Below, one piece after another: positions 12,061 through 58,757 of a DNA stretch of 64,000 bases. Made by a program: the position numbers and the translations under genes. The notes beneath the pieces are model-generated. The model made no database searches. It had not been told where the DNA came from and saw nothing but the letters and a program-made list of their open reading frames with translations. This DNA comes from Escherichia coli (lineage in GTDB: Bacteria; Pseudomonadota; Gammaproteobacteria; Enterobacterales; Enterobacteriaceae). The stretch lies in the NCBI RefSeq assembly GCF_046105845.1, contig NZ_CP151004.1. One strand, given 5' to 3'. Within the stretch, counting starts at the first letter, position 1; each line of letters begins with the position of its first letter.

Positions 12061-12159
12061 GGGAAATTTCAGCGAAAAAGCCCGAAAAATGTGCTGTTAA
12101 TCACATGCCTAAGTAAAAATTTGACGACACGTATTGAAGTGCTTCACCATAGCCTACAG

Positions 12160-27920: not shown

Positions 27921-29288
27921 ATGACAATAGAAAAACACGAAAGAAGCACTAAGGATTTGGTGAAAGCAGCAGTATCGGGATGGCTGGGCACTGCGCTTGA
28001 ATTTATGGATTTCCAGTTATATTCGCTCGGCGCAGCGTTAGTGTTTCATGAAATATTTTTTCCTGAATCATCAACGGCAATGGCGTTAATTCTGGCAATG
28101 GGAACCTACGGTGCAGGTTATGTGGCGCGTATTGTCGGAGCATTTATTTTCGGCAAAATGGGCGACAGAATCGGGCGTAAAAAAGTGCTCTTTATTACCA
28201 TCACTATGATGGGGATCTGTACCACCTTAATTGGTGTGCTGCCGACCTATGCACAAATTGGTGTGTTTGCGCCAATTTTGCTGGTGACGCTGCGTATTAT
28301 TCAGGGGCTGGGGGCAGGCGCGGAAATTTCCGGTGCCGGCACGATGCTGGCGGAATATGCACCAAAAGGTAAGCGCGGAATTATCTCCTCATTTGTGGCT
28401 ATGGGAACTAACTGCGGAACCTTAAGCGCAACGGCAATCTGGGCCTTTATGTTCTTCATTCTCAGTAAAGAAGAACTGCTGGCGTGGGGATGGCGTATAC
28501 CGTTCCTGGCGAGCGTTGTCGTGATGGTCTTTGCTATCTGGTTGCGTATGAATCTGAAAGAAAGCCCGGTCTTTGAGAAGGTTAACGACAGCAACCAACC
28601 GACAGCAAAACCTGCACCTGCTGGTAGCATGTTCCAGAGCAAATCCTTCTGGCTGGCAACAGGGCTGCGTTTTGGTCAGGCTGGTAACTCCGGTTTAATT
28701 CAGACTTTCCTTGCAGGCTATTTAGTACAGACGTTATTGTTTAACAAAGCAATTCCAACAGATGCATTGATGATCAGTTCGATTCTCGGCTTTATGACCA
28801 TTCCGTTCCTTGGTTGGTTATCCGATAAAATTGGTCGCCGGATCCCGTATATTATTATGAATACCTCCGCGATTGTGCTGGCATGGCCAATGCTTTCTAT
28901 CATCGTAGATAAAAGCTATGCCCCGAGCACCATTATGGTTGCACTGATTGTGATTCATAACTGTGCGGTGCTGGGATTATTTGCTCTGGAAAACATTACC
29001 ATGGCAGAAATGTTCGGCTGTAAAAACCGCTTTACCCGGATGGCTATTTCTAAAGAAATTGGTGGTCTTATCGCTTCCGGTTTTGGTCCTATTCTGGCGG
29101 GTATTTTCTGCACCATGACGGAATCCTGGTATCCGATCGCCATTATGATCATGGCATATTCAGTGATTGGTTTAATCTCTGCGCTGAAAATGCCAGAAGT
29201 GAAAGACCGTGATTTAAGTGCGCTGGAAGACGCTGCGGAAGATCAACCGCGTGTTGTCAGAGCTGCGCAACCTTCCAGAAGTCTTTAA
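27921..29288 (+). CDS. ydfJ: MFS metabolite:H+ symporter-family transporter (full length)
   Basis: Uninterrupted 455-aa 12-TM ORF directly downstream of rspB; in K-12 (from memory) this gene is split by the Qin prophage. Confidence 0.88.
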   Translation: MTIEKHERSTKDLVKAAVSGWLGTALEFMDFQLYSLGAALVFHEIFFPESSTAMALILAMGTYGAGYVARIVGAFIFGKMGDRIGRKKVLFITITMMGICTTLIGVLPTYAQIGVFAPILLVTLRIIQGLGAGAEISGAGTMLAEYAPKGKRGIISSFVAMGTNCGTLSATAIWAFMFFILSKEELLAWGWRIPFLASVVVMVFAIWLRMNLKESPVFEKVNDSNQPTAKPAPAGSMFQSKSFWLATGLRFGQAGNSGLIQTFLAGYLVQTLLFNKAIPTDALMISSILGFMTIPFLGWLSDKIGRRIPYIIMNTSAIVLAWPMLSIIVDKSYAPSTIMVALIVIHNCAVLGLFALENITMAEMFGCKNRFTRMAISKEIGGLIASGFGPILAGIFCTMTESWYPIAIMIMAYSVIGLISALKMPEVKDRDLSALEDAAEDQPRVVRAAQPSRSL

Positions 29289-31157: not shown

Positions 31158-31171
31158 TTGTTTTTGATCAA
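31158..31171. promoter_or_regulatory. FNR-like site upstream of ydfZ
   Basis: TTGTTtttgATCAA (one mismatch to the FNR consensus), centred about 88 bp upstream of the ydfZ start; ydfZ is strongly FNR-activated per literature recall. Confidence 0.4.
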
Positions 31172-31252
31172 GCTCACATCTTTTTTGATGCATGCATGAG
31201 CCATAAGGCGGGGGGAAAGACTCTCACCCCGGATGGGATGAGAGGAAATGAA

Positions 31253-38680: not shown

Positions 38681-39580
38681 ATGTCGCGAAAAGATGGGGT
38701 GTTGGCGCTACTGGTAGTGGTCGTATGGGGGCTAAATTTTGTGGTCATCAAAGTGGGGCTTCATAACATGCCACCGCTGATGCTGGCCGGTTTGCGCTTT
38801 ATGCTGGTTGCTTTTCCGGCTATCTTTTTTGTCGCACGACCGAAAGTACCACTGAATTTGCTGCTGGGGTATGGATTAACCATCAGTTTTGCGCAGTTTG
38901 CTTTTCTTTTTTGTGCCATTAACTTCGGTATGCCTGCTGGTCTGGCTTCGTTGGTGTTACAGGCACAGGCGTTTTTTACTATCGTGCTTGGCGCGTTTAC
39001 TTTCGGTGAGCGACTGCATGGCAAACAATTGGCGGGGATCGCCTTAGCGATTTTTGGCGTACTGGTGTTAATCGAAGATAGTCTGAACGGTCAGCATGTG
39101 GCGATGCTCGGCTTTATGTTGACCCTGGCGGCAGCATTTAGTTGGGCGTGTGGCAACATCTTCAATAAAAAGATCATGTCGCACTCAACGCGTCCGGCGG
39201 TGATGTCGCTGGTAATCTGGAGCGCATTAATCCCAATCATTCCCTTCTTTGTTGCCTCGCTGATTCTCGATGGTTCCGCAACCATGATTCACAGTCTGGT
39301 TACTATCGATATGACCACCATCTTGTCTCTGATGTATCTGGCGTTTGTGGCGACAATTGTTGGTTATGGGATCTGGGGGACGTTACTGGGACGCTATGAA
39401 ACCTGGCGGGTTGCACCGTTATCGTTACTGGTGCCCGTAGTAGGACTGGCAAGTGCGGCACTATTGTTGGATGAACGCTTAACGGGTCTACAATTTTTCG
39501 GGGCGGTGCTCATTATGACCGGGCTGTATATCAATGTATTTGGCTTGCGGTGGCGTAAAGCGGTAAAGGTTAGAGGCTAA
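38681..39580 (+). CDS. eamA: DMT-family cysteine/O-acetylserine exporter
   Basis: Start trimmed to ATG 38681 (MSRKDGVLALLVVVVWGLNFVVIKVGL...), 299 aa, two EamA repeats. ORF track begins at 38660. Confidence 0.9.
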   Translation: MSRKDGVLALLVVVVWGLNFVVIKVGLHNMPPLMLAGLRFMLVAFPAIFFVARPKVPLNLLLGYGLTISFAQFAFLFCAINFGMPAGLASLVLQAQAFFTIVLGAFTFGERLHGKQLAGIALAIFGVLVLIEDSLNGQHVAMLGFMLTLAAAFSWACGNIFNKKIMSHSTRPAVMSLVIWSALIPIIPFFVASLILDGSATMIHSLVTIDMTTILSLMYLAFVATIVGYGIWGTLLGRYETWRVAPLSLLVPVVGLASAALLLDERLTGLQFFGAVLIMTGLYINVFGLRWRKAVKVRG

Positions 39581-39585
39581 ACCAT

Positions 39586-39629
39586 ACGCACAGAATGTGA
39601 TGTCAGCACTCTGTGCGTCTGCTTTTATC
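39586..39629 (+). terminator. Intrinsic terminator after eamA
   Basis: 9-bp stem ACGCACAGA / TCTGTGCGT (15-nt loop) followed by CTGCTTTTATC; the stop codon of the downstream minus-strand regulator lies inside the U-tract. Confidence 0.6.
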
Positions 39630-40323
39630 GCGGGAAAAAGTACTTTACCTGGAACTCGAAAATATTGCTGTAAAGTAACGAATAATCCAGCGGAATAGAG
39701 TTACTATCCACAGCCTGGGTCTGAATTTTAAGTATGGGATCCCGTGGGCTGATCCGTAAAATACTGGCGATTTCTGGGGTAGGAAAAGTAGGGGAGAAAG
39801 TTTCAAAGGTGCCAATGATTTTGATCCCGCATTCGTTCTCAATATACGAAAATTTGGATTTTTGCATATGTGCTACGGTTAAATCAGGAAAACGTGCCAC
39901 TGACATCCACGTTTCTTCTAATTGTGCTGCATTATCCTCAATGAATCGCAGTCTCTTTATGTAATAAACCTGCTCACCAGTCACTAAATTCAGCTCAGTC
40001 GCAATAGGGGGAGAAGCATCCTGCACTTCAAATTTCATAATCTGACTTCCTGCCTCCTTGCCGCTTTTATGCGCAATTTCACTGAAGCTGTTCATGTGAT
40101 CAATGTGTGCAACAAAATTCTTTTTTTGAATGTATGTTCCTGAACCATGCTTTCTATGAATAACTCCTTCGCCTTCCAGCAAGGATAATGCCTTACGCAG
40201 GGTATTACGCGAAACATTATAACGAACAGCGAGTTCAGCTTCTGACGGCAACAAATCACCAACATGCCATGAATAGCCATTGATCTCGGATTTAAGTAAG
40301 CGGGCAATCTTTTGAAAAATCAC
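39625..40323 (-). CDS. bgcR: GntR/HutC-family transcriptional regulator (wHTH + UTRA effector domain), divergent from the PTS operon
   Basis: 232-aa ORF with GTG start; N-terminal GntR HTH (LPSEAELAVRYNVSRNTLRKALSLLEGEGVIHRKHGSGTYI) and HutC-type C-terminal domain. Symbol assigned by architecture match to the bgc locus, not sequence-verified. Confidence 0.8.
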   Translation of the reverse strand: MIFQKIARLLKSEINGYSWHVGDLLPSEAELAVRYNVSRNTLRKALSLLEGEGVIHRKHGSGTYIQKKNFVAHIDHMNSFSEIAHKSGKEAGSQIMKFEVQDASPPIATELNLVTGEQVYYIKRLRFIEDNAAQLEETWMSVARFPDLTVAHMQKSKFSYIENECGIKIIGTFETFSPTFPTPEIASILRISPRDPILKIQTQAVDSNSIPLDYSLLYSNIFEFQVKYFFPR

Positions 40324-40482
40324 TTTTGCACCTTTTAAGAGCCATTGAAAACAAGGGGTTGAGTCCTGATTGGTTTATCGTATGGCCGAGTCGTTTAATT
40401 ATTACCCTGATGTTGAACAACTTTATTGCTGTATTACTGTGATCAATGTACCAGGACGTATAGCTACTGCGGGATATGATAT

Positions 40483-40495
40483 TTACACAATGTAA
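40483..40495. promoter_or_regulatory. Candidate operator palindrome in the regulator/PTS divergent promoter region
   Basis: Perfect palindrome TTACA-caa-TGTAA 27 bp upstream of the EIIB start codon; a CRP-like half-site (TGTGA at 40438-40442) lies about 45 bp further upstream. Confidence 0.3.
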
Positions 40496-40521
40496 TCTGT
40501 TATATACCAGTAAGGGAAAAT

Positions 40522-40833
40522 ATGAAAAAGATATTGTTAGTTTGCGCTGCGGGCATGTCAACCAGTATGCTGGTTAAACGTATGATTGATCATGCTAACG
40601 CTATTTCACTTGAAGTTAATATTTCCGCATTGGCGATTGCAGAGGCTAAAGGGAAAATTAAAAATAACGAAGTTGACGTTGTTTTACTTGGCCCGCAAGT
40701 TCGCTTTCAGAAACCAGAGATTGAAGCTGTTGCACAGGGGAAAATGCCTGTAGCTGTTATCGAGATGAAAGACTATGGCACCATGAACGGACAGGCAGTT
40801 CTTGAATTTGCGATGAAACTACTGCAAGAGTAA
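40522..40833 (+). CDS. bgcE: PTS EIIB component, lactose/cellobiose family
   Basis: 103-aa ORF MKKILLVCAAGMSTSMLVKRM... with phosphorylatable Cys in LVCAAGMSTS; AAGGGA RBS. Symbol by architecture match to bgcEFIHA. Confidence 0.85.
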   Translation: MKKILLVCAAGMSTSMLVKRMIDHANAISLEVNISALAIAEAKGKIKNNEVDVVLLGPQVRFQKPEIEAVAQGKMPVAVIEMKDYGTMNGQAVLEFAMKLLQE

Positions 40834-40947
40834 GAATCTAATATTATTAAACTATTACCTGAACTAACTTTTCACACATCATAAAATGGATATGGCATAC
40901 ATGCTTTATTGGGATGTATAAATATCCAGAACAGCAGGTATAAAAAA

Positions 40948-41819
40948 ATGGGATTAATGGCCTCATTCGAACGTGGAATGGAACGTTTTCTTGTTCCAGT
41001 TGCTATCAAGTTAAACTCACAAAAACATGTTGCAGCGGTGAGAGATGGATTCGTTTTTACGTTTCCAATTATTATGGCAAGTTCATTAATTATATTAATT
41101 AATTTTGCCATATTATCGCCAGACGGTTTTATTGCCGGATTACTGCATCTGAATAGCATTTTCCCCAACCTTGAAAAAGCACAAGCTATTTTTACTCCGG
41201 TAATGAATGGTTCTGTAAATATCATGTCAATTATGATTGCTTTCCTGGTCGCCAGGAATATGGCGATTAGCTATGAGCAAGATGATCTTTTATGCGGATT
41301 AACGGCAATAGGAGCATTTTTTATTGTTGGGCCGCTCAACACGGCACTACCTGGGGCGCGCCATATCCGATTACCTGGACTTCTATTAATGATGCATTCG
41401 CCAACTGCGGCGGTTCAGGTATGACGTTGGGGTTATTGTTGGCTATTTTTATCGCTTCTAAGCGTGCGGAATACCGTGATCTGGCAAAAATGTCATTTAT
41501 CCCCGGTATTTTCAATATCAATGAACCGATAATGTTCGGCCTTCCTATTGTACTTAACCCCATCATGATGGTGCCGTTTATTCTGGTTCCCATTGTTAAC
41601 TGTGCCATTGGTTACTTCTTTGTTTCGATGGAAATTATTCCACCGGTTGCTTATGCCGTGCCCTGGACTACGCCCGGACCTTTAATTGCTTTCCTCGGAA
41701 CCGGGGGAAACTGGCTGGCGTTACTGGTGGGTTTTTTATGTTTAGGTGTGGCGACAATGATCTATTTACCTTTTGTTATTGCCGCCAACAAGGTCAATAA
41801 CATGACAACTAACGGATAA
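40948..41819 (+). pseudogene. bgcF: PTS EIIC component (lactose/cellobiose family) disrupted by an out-of-frame internal deletion
   Basis: ORF-track pieces 40909-41424 and 41292-41819 align to the N-terminal ~130 and C-terminal ~160 residues of ChbC-type EIIC in different frames. Total span ~290 codons versus ~440-450 for intact EIIC; frame switch near 41333-41337. Confidence 0.75.
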
Positions 41820-41846
41820 TCCCATTTACACAGGAAGGAGATGTTG

Positions 41847-42158
41847 ATGTTTGCAGATGAAGAACTTGTTATGGAGTTACTGGTCAACGCAGGACAGGCT
41901 CGTTCTGATGCGATGGAAGCCATACGTTGTGCCGGGCAAAAAGACTGGCAGGGCGCAACTCAGCTAATGGCCAGTTCTGAATGCGCCTGTCTTCAGGCGC
42001 ATAAGATTCAGACCGCGTTAATTAGTCAGGATGAAGGCTGTGGCAAAATAGAAGTTAATTTAATTCTGGTTCATGCACAGGATCATTTGATGAATGCAAT
42101 ATTATGCCAGGATTTAGCCAGGGAAATTATTTCATTAAGAAAAGAGCTCCATGCCTGA
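41847..42158 (+). CDS. bgcI: PTS EIIA component, lactose/cellobiose family
   Basis: ChbA-like sequence (...EELVMELLVNAGQARSDAMEAIR...LILVHAQDHLMNA...); start placed at ATG 41847 because GGAAGGAG abuts the track start at 41841. Confidence 0.85.
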   Translation: MFADEELVMELLVNAGQARSDAMEAIRCAGQKDWQGATQLMASSECACLQAHKIQTALISQDEGCGKIEVNLILVHAQDHLMNAILCQDLAREIISLRKELHA

Positions 42159-42161
42159 TTT

Positions 42162-42189
42162 TTTCCTCCAGTGCGATAGCTGGAGGAAA
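42162..42189 (+). other. Intergenic hairpin between the EIIA and porin genes
   Basis: 10-bp inverted repeat TTTCCTCCAG-tgcgatag-CTGGAGGAAA immediately after the EIIA stop and 25 nt before the porin start; no U-tract follows. Confidence 0.4.
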
Positions 42190-42210
42190 TTATTACACTC
42201 TTAAGGATAA

Positions 42211-45349
<3,139 letters not shown>

Positions 45350-45375
45350 GACTTCAGGAAGATATTACGGAGATA

Positions 45376-45399
45376 TCAGGCTCTGTGATCAGAGCCTGA
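45376..45399. terminator. Strong hairpin between the GH1 gene and marB (terminator-like)
   Basis: Perfect 10-bp inverted repeat TCAGGCTCTG-tgat-CAGAGCCTGA; 6 nt from the marB stop; no clear U-tract on either strand. Confidence 0.4.
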
Positions 45400-45405
45400 C
45401 AATAA

Positions 45406-45624
45406 CTACATAGCGTGTTGATTATAATAGGGCACGCCGAGCGCATCCGACTTATCACTGCCAGTACCCATGTGATTTAAATCAAACGGTGGTTGTTCCT
45501 GCGATGGGGGAACAACCACGACATTGGCACAGGAAGTAACAACCTGCTGCGTGGTTTGTTCCGCAATGCCCTGCGTGGAAAAGAGAATAAACGCAGCTGC
45601 TATTGCGGATAAAAGTGGTTTCAT
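45406..45624 (-). CDS. marB: Multiple antibiotic resistance protein MarB (periplasmic)
   Basis: 72-aa ORF with signal peptide MKPLLSAIAAAFILFSTQGIA; last gene of marRAB. Confidence 0.9.
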   Translation of the reverse strand: MKPLLSAIAAAFILFSTQGIAEQTTQQVVTSCANVVVVPPSQEQPPFDLNHMGTGSDKSDALGVPYYNQHAM

Positions 45625-48586: not shown

Positions 48587-48735
48587 AACAGATTATCGGG
48601 TGAGTTGCGAAAAAGTGATGAAATGATCTTAAAACGGTTAATGATGTGAATACAATGCATTTGTGATCTGGATCGCGTTTTCCGTTTCTCTGACGCTGAT
48701 TCTGTTCCGCGTCAGAGAGTCGGTAACATCACGGT

Positions 48736-53786: not shown

Positions 53787-55205
53787 ATGCATGTACAGCC
53801 CATTTCAACTTTCCGTTTGTTCCAGGAAGGTCATCTGCTACGTAATAGCATCGCTATTTTTGCGCTAACCACGCTGTTCTATTTTATTGGTGCAGAGTTA
53901 CGGCTGGTTCACGAACTTTCTCTTTTCTGGCCGCTGAATGGCGTAATGGCGGGGGTGTTTGCCCGCTATGTCTGGCTTAATCGACTGCATTACTATGCGA
54001 TCAGTTATGTGGCAATGCTGGTTTATGATGCCATAACCACCGAATGGGGGCTGGTTTCACTGGCTATCAATTTCTCCAATATGATGTTTATTGTTACCGT
54101 CGCCTTACTGGTCGCGCGGGATAAGCGTCTGGGGAAAAATAAGTACGAGCCAGTAAGTGCCTTACGGCTATTTAATTACTGTCTGATTGCCGCATTATTA
54201 TGCGCTATTGTCGGGGCGATTGGTTCGGTCAGTATTGATAGTCTGGATTTCTGGCCTTTGCTTGCCGACTGGTTCAGTGAGCAATTCTCAACGGGCGTGT
54301 TGATCGTGCCTTGTATGCTGACGTTGGCAATTCCTGGAGTGCTGCCGCGCTTTAAAGCAGAACAGATGATGCCCGCTATCGCGCTTATTGTGTCGGTTAT
54401 TGCCTCGGTAGTCATTGGCGGAGCGGGGAGTCTGGCGTTCCCGCTGCCTGCATTAATCTGGTGTGCAGTGCGCTATACGCCGCAGGTAACATGTCTGTTG
54501 ACCTTTGTCACCGGTGCGGTTGAAATCGTACTGGTGGCAAATTCGGTGATTGATATCTCGGTCGGTTCGCCGTTCTCCATTCCGCAAATGTTCTCCGCAC
54601 GTCTCGGTATTGCCACGATGGCGATATGCCCAATTATGGTTTCTTTTAGCGTGGCAGCGATCAATTCGCTAATGAAGCAAGTTGCGCTGCGAGCCGACTT
54701 TGATTTTCTGACTCAGGTTTACTCACGGTCCGGTCTTTATGAGGCGCTGAAAAGTCCATCGCTGAAACAGACACAACATCTGACTGTCATGCTGCTTGAT
54801 ATCGACTATTTCAAAAGCATTAACGATAACTATGGACATGAATGTGGCGATAAAGTGTTAAGCGTGTTTGCCCAGCATATTCAGAAGATTGTCGGTGATA
54901 AGGGGCTGGTGGCGCGAATGGGCGGCGAAGAATTTGCTGTTGCAGTGCCATCGGTGAATCCTGTCGATGGTCTGCTAATGGCGGAAAAAATCCGTAAAGG
55001 CGTTGAACTGCAACCGTTCACCTGGCAACAAAAAACGCTTTATCTCACGGTAAGTATTGGCGTCGGTAGTGGTTGCGCATCGTACCGAACGCTGACCGAT
55101 GACTTTAATAAATTGATGGTCGAAGCCGATACATGTCTGTATCGCTCGAAGAAAGATGGGCGCAACCGTACCAGCACTATGCGTTACGGTGAGGAAGTTG
55201 TCTGA
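53787..55205 (+). CDS. dgcF: Membrane-anchored diguanylate cyclase (GGDEF domain)
   Basis: 472-aa ORF with N-terminal multi-TM sensor region and C-terminal GGDEF domain (RMGGEEF). Start is uncertain; the protein I recall as YneF may be annotated shorter. Confidence 0.8.
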   Translation: MHVQPISTFRLFQEGHLLRNSIAIFALTTLFYFIGAELRLVHELSLFWPLNGVMAGVFARYVWLNRLHYYAISYVAMLVYDAITTEWGLVSLAINFSNMMFIVTVALLVARDKRLGKNKYEPVSALRLFNYCLIAALLCAIVGAIGSVSIDSLDFWPLLADWFSEQFSTGVLIVPCMLTLAIPGVLPRFKAEQMMPAIALIVSVIASVVIGGAGSLAFPLPALIWCAVRYTPQVTCLLTFVTGAVEIVLVANSVIDISVGSPFSIPQMFSARLGIATMAICPIMVSFSVAAINSLMKQVALRADFDFLTQVYSRSGLYEALKSPSLKQTQHLTVMLLDIDYFKSINDNYGHECGDKVLSVFAQHIQKIVGDKGLVARMGGEEFAVAVPSVNPVDGLLMAEKIRKGVELQPFTWQQKTLYLTVSIGVGSGCASYRTLTDDFNKLMVEADTCLYRSKKDGRNRTSTMRYGEEVV

Positions 55206-55432: not shown

Positions 55433-56884
55433 GTGAAAACACTAAATCGTCGCGATTTTCCCGGTGCACAGTATCCAGAACGTATCATTCAGTTTGGTGA
55501 AGGTAACTTCCTGCGCGCCTTTGTTGACTGGCAAATCGATCTCCTGAATGAGCACACCGATCTGAATTCTGGCGTGGTCGTTGTTCGTCCGATTGAAACT
55601 TCATTCCCACCGTCACTGAGCACACAGGATGGTCTGTACACCACCATTATCCGTGGCCTGAATGAGAAGGGTGAAGCGGTCAGCGATGCGCGTCTGATTC
55701 GCTCGGTTAATCGTGAAATCAGCGTCTACAGTGAATACGATGAATTCCTGAAACTGGCGCACAATCCGGAAATGCGCTTTGTTTTCTCTAACACCACCGA
55801 AGCGGGTATCAGCTACCATGCGGGCGATAAATTCGATGACGCGCCGGCGGTAAGTTATCCGGCAAAACTGACCCGTCTGCTGTTCGAACGTTTTAGCCAT
55901 TTCAACGGTGCGCTGGATAAAGGTTGGATCATCATCCCGTGTGAGTTGATCGACTACAATGGCGACGCGTTGCGTGAACTGGTTCTGCGCTATGCGCAAG
56001 AGTGGGCACTGCCAGAAGCATTTATTCAATGGCTGGATCAGGCTAACAGCTTCTGTTCTACGCTGGTGGACCGTATCGTTACCGGTTATCCGCGCGATGA
56101 AGTGGCTAAACTGGAAGAAGAACTGGGTTATCACGATGGTTTCCTCGACACCGCTGAACACTTTTACCTGTTTGTGATTCAGGGTCCGAAATCCTTAGCG
56201 ACTGAACTGCGTCTGGACAAATATCCGCTCAACGTGCTGATTGTTGACGATATTAAACCGTACAAAGAACGCAAAGTGGCAATCCTCAACGGTGCGCACA
56301 CCGCGCTGGTGCCAGTGGCGTTCCAGGCTGGGCTGGATACTGTAGGTGAAGCGATGAACGATGCTGAAATTTGTGCATTCGTTGAAAAAGCCATCTACGA
56401 AGAGATTATTCCGGTACTGGATTTGCCTCGTGATGAACTGGAATCTTTCGCCAGTGCAGTCACCGGACGTTTCCGTAACCCGTACATCAAGCATCAGCTG
56501 CTGTCTATCGCGCTCAACGGTATGACCAAGTTCCGCACACGCATCCTGCCGCAGCTGCTGGCAGGGCAGAAGGCAAACGGCACACTTCCGGCGCGCCTTA
56601 CTTTCGCATTAGCGGCATTGATTGCGTTTTATCGCGGTGAGCGTAACGGAGAAACATATCCGGTACAGGACGATGCACACTGGCTGGAACGTTATCAGCA
56701 ACTCTGGAGCCAGCATCGTGACCGTGTTATCGGCACCCAGGAACTGGTAGCGATTGTTTTGGCAGAAAAAGACCACTGGGAGCAGGACCTGACGCAAGTG
56801 CCTGGTCTGGTCGAGCAGGTTGCTAAGGACCTGGATGCGATTCTCGAAAAAGGAATGCGCGAAGCTGTACGTCCGTTGTGCTAA
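55433..56884 (+). CDS. uxaB: Altronate oxidoreductase (tagaturonate reductase)
   Basis: 483-aa ORF with GTG start ([36 protein letters not shown]...); matches UxaB. Confidence 0.92.
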
Positions 56885-56891
56885 TACTCTG

Positions 56892-56920
56892 AACCCGGTT
56901 TCGACCGGGTTTCTTATTTT
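56892..56920 (+). terminator. Intrinsic terminator after uxaB
   Basis: Stem AACCCGGT-ttcg-ACCGGGTT followed by TCTTATTTT, 8 nt after the uxaB stop. Confidence 0.75.
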
Positions 56921-57080
56921 ACTATATTAGTTACAACATCCTATGTGCCTTTATCATTAACGGGTGCCATATGCCACACCTGTAAATGTTGTAAGCTTGT
57001 AGGTAATTTGTAAGTAGTGTCTTGAGAATGTGATCGTAATCACGTTTAATAGGACGACTTTTCCACGCCTGAAGATAACC

Positions 57081-57995
57081 ATGATTGTTCGTCCACAACA
57101 ACACTGGCTGCGCCGTATTTTTGTCTGGCACGGTTCAGTATTATCCAAGATATCCTCGCGCTTACTACTCAATTTTCTCTTTTCTATCGCTGTTATTTTC
57201 ATGCTGCCCTGGTACACGCATTTGGGCATTAAATTCACCCTCGCACCGTTCAGCATTCTCGGTGTCGCCATCGCCATTTTTCTTGGTTTTCGTAATAATG
57301 CCGGGTACGCCCGTTACGTTGAAGCGCGAAAACTTTGGGGGCAGTTGATGATTGCCTCACGGTCGTTACTGCGCGAGGTAAAAACGACATTGCCAGATTC
57401 GGCAAGTGTAAGGGAGTTTGCCCGGCTGCAAATCGCCTTCGCTCACTGTTTACGCATGACATTACGCAAACAACCACAGGCGGAAGTGCTGGCTCAATAT
57501 CTCAAGACGGAAGATCTTCAGCGAGTACTGGCTTCGAACTCTCCAGCTAACCGTATCTTGTTAATAATGGGGGAGTGGTTGGCGGTTCAGCGCCGCAATG
57601 GGCAGCTTTCAGATATCCTGTTTATTAGTCTCAACGATCGGCTTAACGATATTTCAGCGGTTCTGGCAGGCTGCGAGCGCATTGCCTATACGCCAATTCC
57701 CTTTGCCTACACCCTGATTTTGCATCGTACCGTTTATCTGTTTTGTATCATGCTGCCGTTCGCGCTGGTCGTGGACCTGCATTACATGACGCCTTTTATC
57801 TCTGTGCTGATTTCCTACACTTTTATTTCGCTGGATTGTCTGGCGGAAGAACTGGAAGATCCCTTCGGTACTGAAAACAATGATTTACCGCTGGATGCCA
57901 TCTGCAACGCTATTGAAATTGACCTGTTACAGATGAACGATGAAACAGAAATTCCAGCAAAAATTCTTCCCGATCGTCATTACCAGCTGACGTAA
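57081..57995 (+). CDS. yneE: Bestrophin-family membrane protein
   Basis: Start trimmed to ATG 57081 (MIVRPQQHWLRRIFVWHGSVLSKI...), 304 aa. ORF track begins at 57030. Confidence 0.85.
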   Translation: MIVRPQQHWLRRIFVWHGSVLSKISSRLLLNFLFSIAVIFMLPWYTHLGIKFTLAPFSILGVAIAIFLGFRNNAGYARYVEARKLWGQLMIASRSLLREVKTTLPDSASVREFARLQIAFAHCLRMTLRKQPQAEVLAQYLKTEDLQRVLASNSPANRILLIMGEWLAVQRRNGQLSDILFISLNDRLNDISAVLAGCERIAYTPIPFAYTLILHRTVYLFCIMLPFALVVDLHYMTPFISVLISYTFISLDCLAEELEDPFGTENNDLPLDAICNAIEIDLLQMNDETEIPAKILPDRHYQLT

Positions 57996-57998
57996 TAT

Positions 57999-58757
57999 TT
58001 ACTCCGTACGCCGGGCAACAATAAACAGACGCGGAAATGCCAGCAGTATCTCTCCGTTCTCTTGCAGTGGATACTGCTCTTCCAGCATCTGATGGTAGCG
58101 CGTAAGAAAATGCTGCTGTTCGCTCTCGGTCAGATCCTGTAACCACGGACGTAATCCAGTGGCGGTCACCCAATCGATAATCGCCTGGTGCGACGGCATC
58201 TGGTGATAGTAGGTGGTTCGCCAGATATCGACCTCACATCCGGCTTCGCTCAAAATATCGTAGTAAGCATGAACGCCAGCCAGCGGCTCACGCCCGCGAT
58301 CCGGGTAGTTTTGTTCCCAGGCAACTTCGCGCATAAGCACATGGGTCGGCTCCAGCCAGTTATCTGGCATCTGTACTGCCAGCACGCCCTGCGGATTAAG
58401 TAAAGAAACCAGATGAGGAAACAATTCGTAGTGGTCGGGCAGCCATTGCAGTGAGGCATTAGCGAAAATCAGATCCAGTGTCTGTTCCGGTTGCCAGTTG
58501 CGGATATCTGCTTCCACAAACTGGCAGTCTGGCAAAGCACTGCGCGCTTCGGCAATCATCGCCGGAGACGAGTCGATGCCTGTTATCCTGGCCGCAGGCC
58601 AACGTTGATGCAGCAGGGCGGTGCTGTTACCTGGGCCACAGCCAAGATCGGCAACGTATTTGATATTCTCCAGCGGCACTCTGGCAAGCAGCTCCACCGC
58701 CGGACGCGATCGTTCAGCGGCAAAGTGCAGATATAAAGAGGGGTTCCAGTCAGACAT
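57999..58757 (-). CDS. tam: Trans-aconitate 2-methyltransferase
   Basis: 252-aa SAM-dependent methyltransferase with SAM-binding motif [11 protein letters not shown]. Confidence 0.9.

Follow-up and report, generated by a model that had tools for sequence, protein, structure and literature searches.

CRP is known both from promoters that it activates and from promoters that it represses. Among the activated promoters, lac represents class I, with its CRP site at -61.5, and galP1 represents class II, with its site at -41.5. Among the repressed promoters, cyaA P2, galP2 and proP P1 carry the site over the core promoter. A rule set out by Shimada et al. (2011) relates position to outcome: activating CRP sites are found upstream of the promoter, from about -40 and with a 10-bp periodicity, whereas those that repress are located over the promoter or beyond it on the downstream side. 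The same study gives the bend that CRP imposes on DNA as about 87 degrees.

The site described here precedes yneE in a 64,000-nucleotide stretch of Escherichia coli DNA, referred to below as the window, and a CRP site at yneE is not new to the literature, which has two independent studies of binding and one of expression. In the Genomic SELEX work of Shimada et al. (2011), yneE is given among the new CRP targets, and the entry for the 'yneE< <uxaB' spacer in the paper's supplementary table is a SELEX-chip peak whose sequence, CGTGATTACGATCACA, is the reverse complement of the yneE site. The Footprint-seq data of Wang, Stringer and Wade (bioRxiv 2026) assign aaTGTGAtcgtaaTCACGttt to yneE and put its Kd at an estimated ~0.7 nM, within a range of 0.4-510 nM for 1,217 bound regions, and yneE is third from the top in their table of sites outside earlier curated lists. 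Few CRP sites in the E. coli genome bind the protein more tightly than the yneE site.

The expression evidence comes from Sastry et al. (2019), whose 'crp-KO' iModulon contains 14 genes, including yneE, and has an activity that shifts strongly in crp knock-out strains. Its other members are gcd, proP, tsgA, ydeA, bhsA, mscS, tsx, pck, crp, psiE, ybiJ, yedR and yjcB, of which ydeA, ybiJ, yedR and mscS also have high-affinity sites in the Footprint-seq table. Membership in this set means that the level of yneE mRNA responds to deletion of crp, and it fits either direction of control. The set mixes genes reported to be activated by CRP (pck and tsx) with genes reported to be repressed by it (gcd, proP and psiE). 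As for chromatin immunoprecipitation, the accessible part of the ChIP-exo supplement of Latif (2018) holds no entry near the yneE locus, and the accessible text and supplements of Haycocks (2015), on CRP ChIP-seq in ETEC, do not mention it. From the SELEX-chip peak, the Footprint-seq affinity and the crp-KO membership, it is close to certain that CRP binds the yneE site and that yneE is CRP-responsive, and the central proposal of the first-pass annotation, that yneE is under catabolite control by CRP, is thereby borne out.

A 601-bp query around the site matches 5,415 of the 5,426 complete E. coli genomes, the best match being PCN033 (99.5%). Along the locus, dgcF is followed by uxaB (55433-56884, plus strand), an intergenic region of 196 bp, yneE on the same strand, and a convergent tam. 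The diguanylate cyclase ORF before uxaB (53787-55205) encodes 472 amino acids and its PCN033 counterpart has an annotated length of 1,419 nt, against 948 nt in the annotation of K-12 dgcF (b1522), a gap that could be due to a different start call or to a truncation in K-12. Two larger differences from K-12 are also found in the window. The Qin cryptic prophage (K-12 1632277-1652745) is absent, such that positions 27998-28016 join K-12 1652743 and 1632291 directly, and some 5.8 kb between eamA and marB (39571-45403) has no counterpart in K-12, where the two genes are adjacent (1620209/1620248). A CRP-like match with one mismatch (45471-45486) is located just beyond this insert, at a position corresponding to within marB. 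At the other end of the locus, yneE and tam have stop codons 3 bp apart (57995-57999), and ExcludonFinder (2025) gives tam-yneE as an 'excludon' pair with overlapping transcripts. Given this convergence and listing, transcription from tam or lsr may exert antisense interference on yneE.

The YneE product matches the Pfam family Bestrophin_2 (PF25539, E = 8.6e-99) and resembles the Klebsiella KpBest structure 4WD7 over its full length (E = 1e-105), and both alignments begin at residue 1. The repression by CRP that is predicted below offers a cheap and testable hint on the physiology of this channel in bacteria. The 'yneE' of an eLife 2014 paper, and of several others, is the unrelated YneE/SirA of Bacillus.

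The first-pass annotation had recognized that a misplaced yneE start codon would make the CRP site intragenic, and the mechanical ORF opens at GTG 57030, within the site. The ATG at 57081 is upheld on several grounds. It is the RefSeq start in both PCN033 and K-12, and an in-frame stop codon occurs within 60 nt 5' of the ATG in 62 of 80 orthologous loci, which were taken one per species at a YneE identity of 68-98%. The longer reading frame from GTG 57030 was ruled out by the mapped 5' end of the mRNA, which lies downstream of this codon; the in-frame stops and the Pfam and 4WD7 alignments also count against it.

The site itself, TGTGATCGTAATCACG, is a 16-mer read from the plus strand of the window sequence, and is flanked to give an extended 22-mer at 57026-57047. 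The first-pass annotation had placed it at 57029-57044, with 9 of 10 consensus positions and about 44 bp before the ATG. The sequence confirms all of this, the agreement with TGTGA-N6-TCACA being 9 of the 10 half-site positions and the centre, at 57036.5, being 44.5 bp 5' of the A of the ATG. A bare 16-mer consensus match has no significance when taken alone: scanning the window for this consensus with at most one mismatch gives 4 matches when 1.95 are expected, and 15 of 100 shuffles equal that number. Adding the flanks makes the yneE site stand out from chance. With a 20-bp weight matrix derived from 39 of the Footprint-seq CRP sites (their Table 1), the yneE site having been left out, the score is 19.2 bits, a value reached by 1 of 100 simulated 64-kb windows. 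Conservation, described below, and the published binding data together take the site well beyond chance.

Other CRP-type sequences are found in the window. A second very strong site, TTTGTGATCTGGATCGCGTT (48660-48679), is located upstream of ydeA and scores 19.9 bits, although it forms part of the matrix training set and its score is not independent. It corresponds to a Footprint-seq site with a Kd of 0.5 nM, and ydeA is a further member of the crp-KO iModulon. The matches at 31161-31180 and 12088-12107 are TTTTTGATCAAGCTCACATC and AATGTGCTGTTAATCACATG, respectively. The first is the ydfZ site, with a Footprint-seq Kd of 5.2 nM, and the second contains the core TGTGCTGTTAATCACA, which Shimada et al. 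(2011) list for dgsA/mlc.

The intrinsic terminator of uxaB (Table 1), with a predicted RNA fold of -13.5 kcal/mol and a z-score of -4.2, parts the uxaB transcript from the yneE promoter, and with so good a terminator upstream yneE is expected to own a promoter. Directly after the uxaB stop codon, K-12 has 10 extra bases, ACACCGTTAC, that are missing from the window (56886/56887) and from PCN033. A transcription start for yneE has been mapped in K-12 by Kim et al. (2012), whose Table S1 gives it as 1607071 on the minus strand (NC_000913.2), 25 nt before the coding sequence, with the upstream 51-mer ATTTGTAAGTAGCGTCTTGAGAATGTGATCGTAATCACGTTTAATAGGGCG, the 3' end of which reads ...TTTAATAGGGCG. 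The cells had been grown to mid-log phase in glucose M9 medium; the start represents a single dataset under that one condition. Between 57019 and the ATG the window is the same as K-12 except for one base, 57054, and with the promoter so nearly identical the K-12 start and binding results carry over directly. The 5' UTR is 25 nt long, and a GAAG or GAAA motif comes back at the position of the putative ribosome-binding site in orthologous loci.

Table 1. Features of the uxaB-yneE intergenic region and yneE, in window coordinates.
Feature	Position	Strand	Basis or remark
uxaB intrinsic terminator	56891-56920	+	Stem-loop at 56891-56912, then T-rich tail; terminator scan
-35 hexamer TTGAGA	57022-57027	+	-34 to -29 from start; 5 of 6 against TTGACA
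CRP binding site TGTGATCGTAATCACG	57029-57044	.	Sequence, weight matrix, SELEX-chip, Footprint-seq, conservation
-10-like hexamer TTTAAT	57045-57050	+	-11 to -6 from start; 5 of 6 against TATAAT
yneE transcription start (G)	57056	+	Start of Kim et al. 2012, carried over by alignment
Probable weak ribosome-binding site GAAGA	57071-57075	+	Purine-rich, 5 nt before the ATG; from sequence
yneE coding sequence	57081-57995	+	ORF list, RefSeq; 304 aa bestrophin-family membrane channel homologue

The hexamers TTGAGA and TTTAAT, with a spacer of 17 bp between them and the start 6 nt past the second, fit a sigma-70 promoter and are conserved, though the -10 hexamer has T at position 2, where A is nearly invariant. 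Measured from the mapped start, the CRP 16-mer extends from -27 to -12, with its centre at -19.5, and takes up essentially all of the spacer. In an alternative register the -10 would be TAATAG at 57047-57052, with a spacer of 19 bp and a start just 4 nt past the hexamer. The choice between TTTAAT and TAATAG is uncertain, and with either the CRP site is found inside the core promoter. The promoter does not appear in the output of our promoter scan, as the scan demands A at position 2 of the -10. Two other plus-strand promoters that the scan proposed, at 56901-56928 and 56930-56957, were dropped as their sequence is not conserved between genera.

Across the Enterobacteriaceae, 72 of the 80 orthologous loci have, with its centre 40-56 bp before the ATG, a match to the CRP matrix that scores 9 bits or more, as compared with 0.5% of control blocks of equal size taken between -300 and -110 in these loci; the loci are related to each other, and such counts are not independent events. 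Information per column was calculated from 71 distinct sequences aligned on the CRP site. It is 0.1-0.3 bits upstream of 57017, 1.7-2.0 bits for the C-T-T-G..A of the -35, about 2.0 bits for the T-G-A of the left half-site, 0.2-0.5 bits for the central six bases, 1.3-2.0 bits for G-A-T-C-A-C-G and 1.5-2.0 bits for T-T-T-A-A-T, and is low downstream of the -10. The TTG and the final A of the -35 are invariant over about 70 species, as is the promoter-proximal half of the palindrome, and the left half varies among TGTGA, CGTGA, GGTGA, ATTGA, CATGA, AGTGA and TTTGA. In these species, conservation in the intergenic region is confined to the block formed by the -35, the palindrome and the -10. Sigma-70 needs no particular sequence in the spacer. 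That two symmetric half-sites are nevertheless kept there points to a dimeric regulator bound inside the promoter.

Within E. coli the same block stands out, in that the 35-bp promoter/operator segment is found in 5,413 of 5,426 genomes, whereas only 494 have a recognisable copy of a control 35-mer taken from 60 bp upstream. The gene upstream is also largely constant, uxaB being directly adjacent and in the same orientation at 67 of the 80 loci, and the register of the palindrome with the -35 and -10 is unchanged even where uxaB is not adjacent (L017, L071, L074, Buttiauxella). In Buttiauxella the CRP site is 50-53 bp from the ATG, and its left half, TTGATC, could double as the -35 of a promoter with a TTAAAT box that lies 7 bp further downstream. 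In Superficieibacter, two loci (L041 and L050, upstream of position 2501) are without both the palindrome and the -35/-10 frame, with uxaB still upstream in L050, and the regulatory module appears to have been lost naturally there.

One lineage has replaced the operator. In three genomes of the Citrobacter freundii complex (L006, L007 and L016: C. braakii, C. portucalensis and a MAG labelled Raoultella), the score of the ancestral spacer site has fallen to 2-6 bits, and a new CRP site, AATGTGA(T/C)GGATTTCACATT, with a score of 17-18 bits, is found 20 bp downstream of the old one. The new site (about 2466-2485 in each locus) is centred 25.5 bp from the ATG and lies over the predicted transcription start, a position that is workable for a repressor and not for an activator. 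Related Citrobacter genomes already have the TCACA half of the new site.

Taken together, these observations make it rather probable that cAMP-CRP represses yneE by promoter occlusion, which predicts that glucose favours yneE expression. The operator overlaps the -35 to +1 region occupied by RNA polymerase, and its centre is at neither of the activating positions, which are near -41.5, or at -61.5 and further upstream in steps of about 10 bp. A site that is centred at -19.5 and fills the spacer leaves no room for class I or class II contacts, and competition with RNA polymerase is to be expected; the CRP-induced bend makes such competition all the likelier. The promoter itself does not depend on CRP in order to fire, given that its start was mapped in glucose-grown cells, in which cAMP is low, and that it has a good -35 of its own. 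The distance of about 44 bp from the start codon given in the first-pass annotation therefore stands, but measured from the mapped start the site is at -19.5, so that repression is expected rather than classical activation. Under the proposed mechanism, when glucose is lacking and cAMP is high, CRP would occupy and bend the spacer and would thereby keep RNA polymerase off the yneE promoter, and yneE would be made mainly at low cAMP, for example during growth on glucose.

Activation of yneE by CRP, either from a second start used when cAMP is high or through some unconventional mechanism that operates within the spacer, has in its favour that most CRP sites activate, that yneE shares its iModulon with the CRP-activated genes pck and tsx, and that a -10 without the key A at position 2 might need help. 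We nonetheless consider it unlikely. The site is at -19.5 from the only mapped start, and the promoter fires in glucose-grown cells. Class II geometry would put the start 41.5 bp past the centre of the site, 3 nt before the ATG, and it was rejected as the corresponding -10 position (about 57066-57071, CGCCTG) is neither -10-like nor conserved, with 0.2-0.9 bits. The replacement site in Citrobacter, moreover, overlaps the start itself. A particular form of activation, in which CRP at -19.5, rather than shutting out RNA polymerase, would realign the A-less promoter by distorting its spacer in the manner of MerR-type activators, falls outside classes I to III and is highly improbable. It is also quite unlikely that the site serves mainly as a barrier or insulator against read-through from a CRP-induced uxaB, or as an inert high-affinity 'parking' site. 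The very high affinity would suit either role, and for a barrier it is relevant that uxaB usually lies directly upstream in the same orientation (the 67 loci noted above) and that RegulonDB, which Shimada et al. (2011) cite, counts it among CRP targets. Against this, uxaB is itself closed by a strong terminator, and the fixed register of the palindrome with the -35 and -10, even in the absence of an adjacent uxaB, argues for a role coupled to the promoter; an inert site, for its part, would not be expected to be conserved or to be replaced after decay. In a milder variant, the cAMP signal that induces uxaB may both shut the yneE promoter and block read-through, and this joint action would explain the conserved linkage of the two genes.

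Two further explanations concern other partners of the palindrome. It could be mainly the operator of FNR or of another protein of the CRP/FNR family, with binding by CRP secondary in E. coli, as many Citrobacter and Buttiauxella sequences have an FNR-like left half, TTGAT, and only TGA-N6-TCA is invariant. The right half, however, is always the CRP-type TCAC(G), where FNR sites have TCAA, and with purified CRP binding the E. coli site at a sub-nanomolar Kd and yneE responding to deletion of crp we regard this as very improbable. The first-pass annotation had offered, as its own alternative, that CRP drives an unannotated divergent transcript, which would be on the minus strand and antisense to the 3' end of uxaB. 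A palindromic site could in principle face either way, but the promoter scan finds no promoter-like site on the minus strand between 56700 and 57300, the positions at which a class I or class II -10 would fall (about 57002-57007 and 56982-56987) are not -10-like, and conservation is absent upstream of 57017. A search of the intergenic region against Rfam matched no family, which also counts against such a transcript, and this alternative is barely credible. Repression of yneE by occlusion thus continues to be the reading that we prefer.

If repression is true, then a bacterial homologue of the bestrophins is made mainly when glucose is available. What is added here to the published record is modest, namely an operator within the promoter spacer that is conserved in the Enterobacteriaceae and has been replaced after decay in one Citrobacter lineage. 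Together, the geometry, the conservation and the turnover settle which sign of regulation is the likely one. The locus would also serve as a clear-cut case of a repressing CRP site for models in which site position is used to predict the sign.

In comparison with the site published for yneE by Shimada et al. (2011) and by Footprint-seq, the one in the window agrees in both sequence and locus, and comes from another E. coli lineage; what those two sources report at yneE is binding in vitro only, to which the present analysis adds the geometry of the promoter. With the class I and class II activated promoters, yneE shares the same protein and the same 16-bp palindrome, but it differs in having its site at -19.5 and in having a promoter with a good -35 of its own that fires in glucose-grown cells. 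There is also a likeness to the CRP-repressed promoters with a site over the core promoter, in which, as at yneE, the site is downstream of -40 and inside the footprint of RNA polymerase. The yneE operator differs from these in that it exactly fills the spacer between the -35 and the -10, and in that repression at yneE is a prediction.
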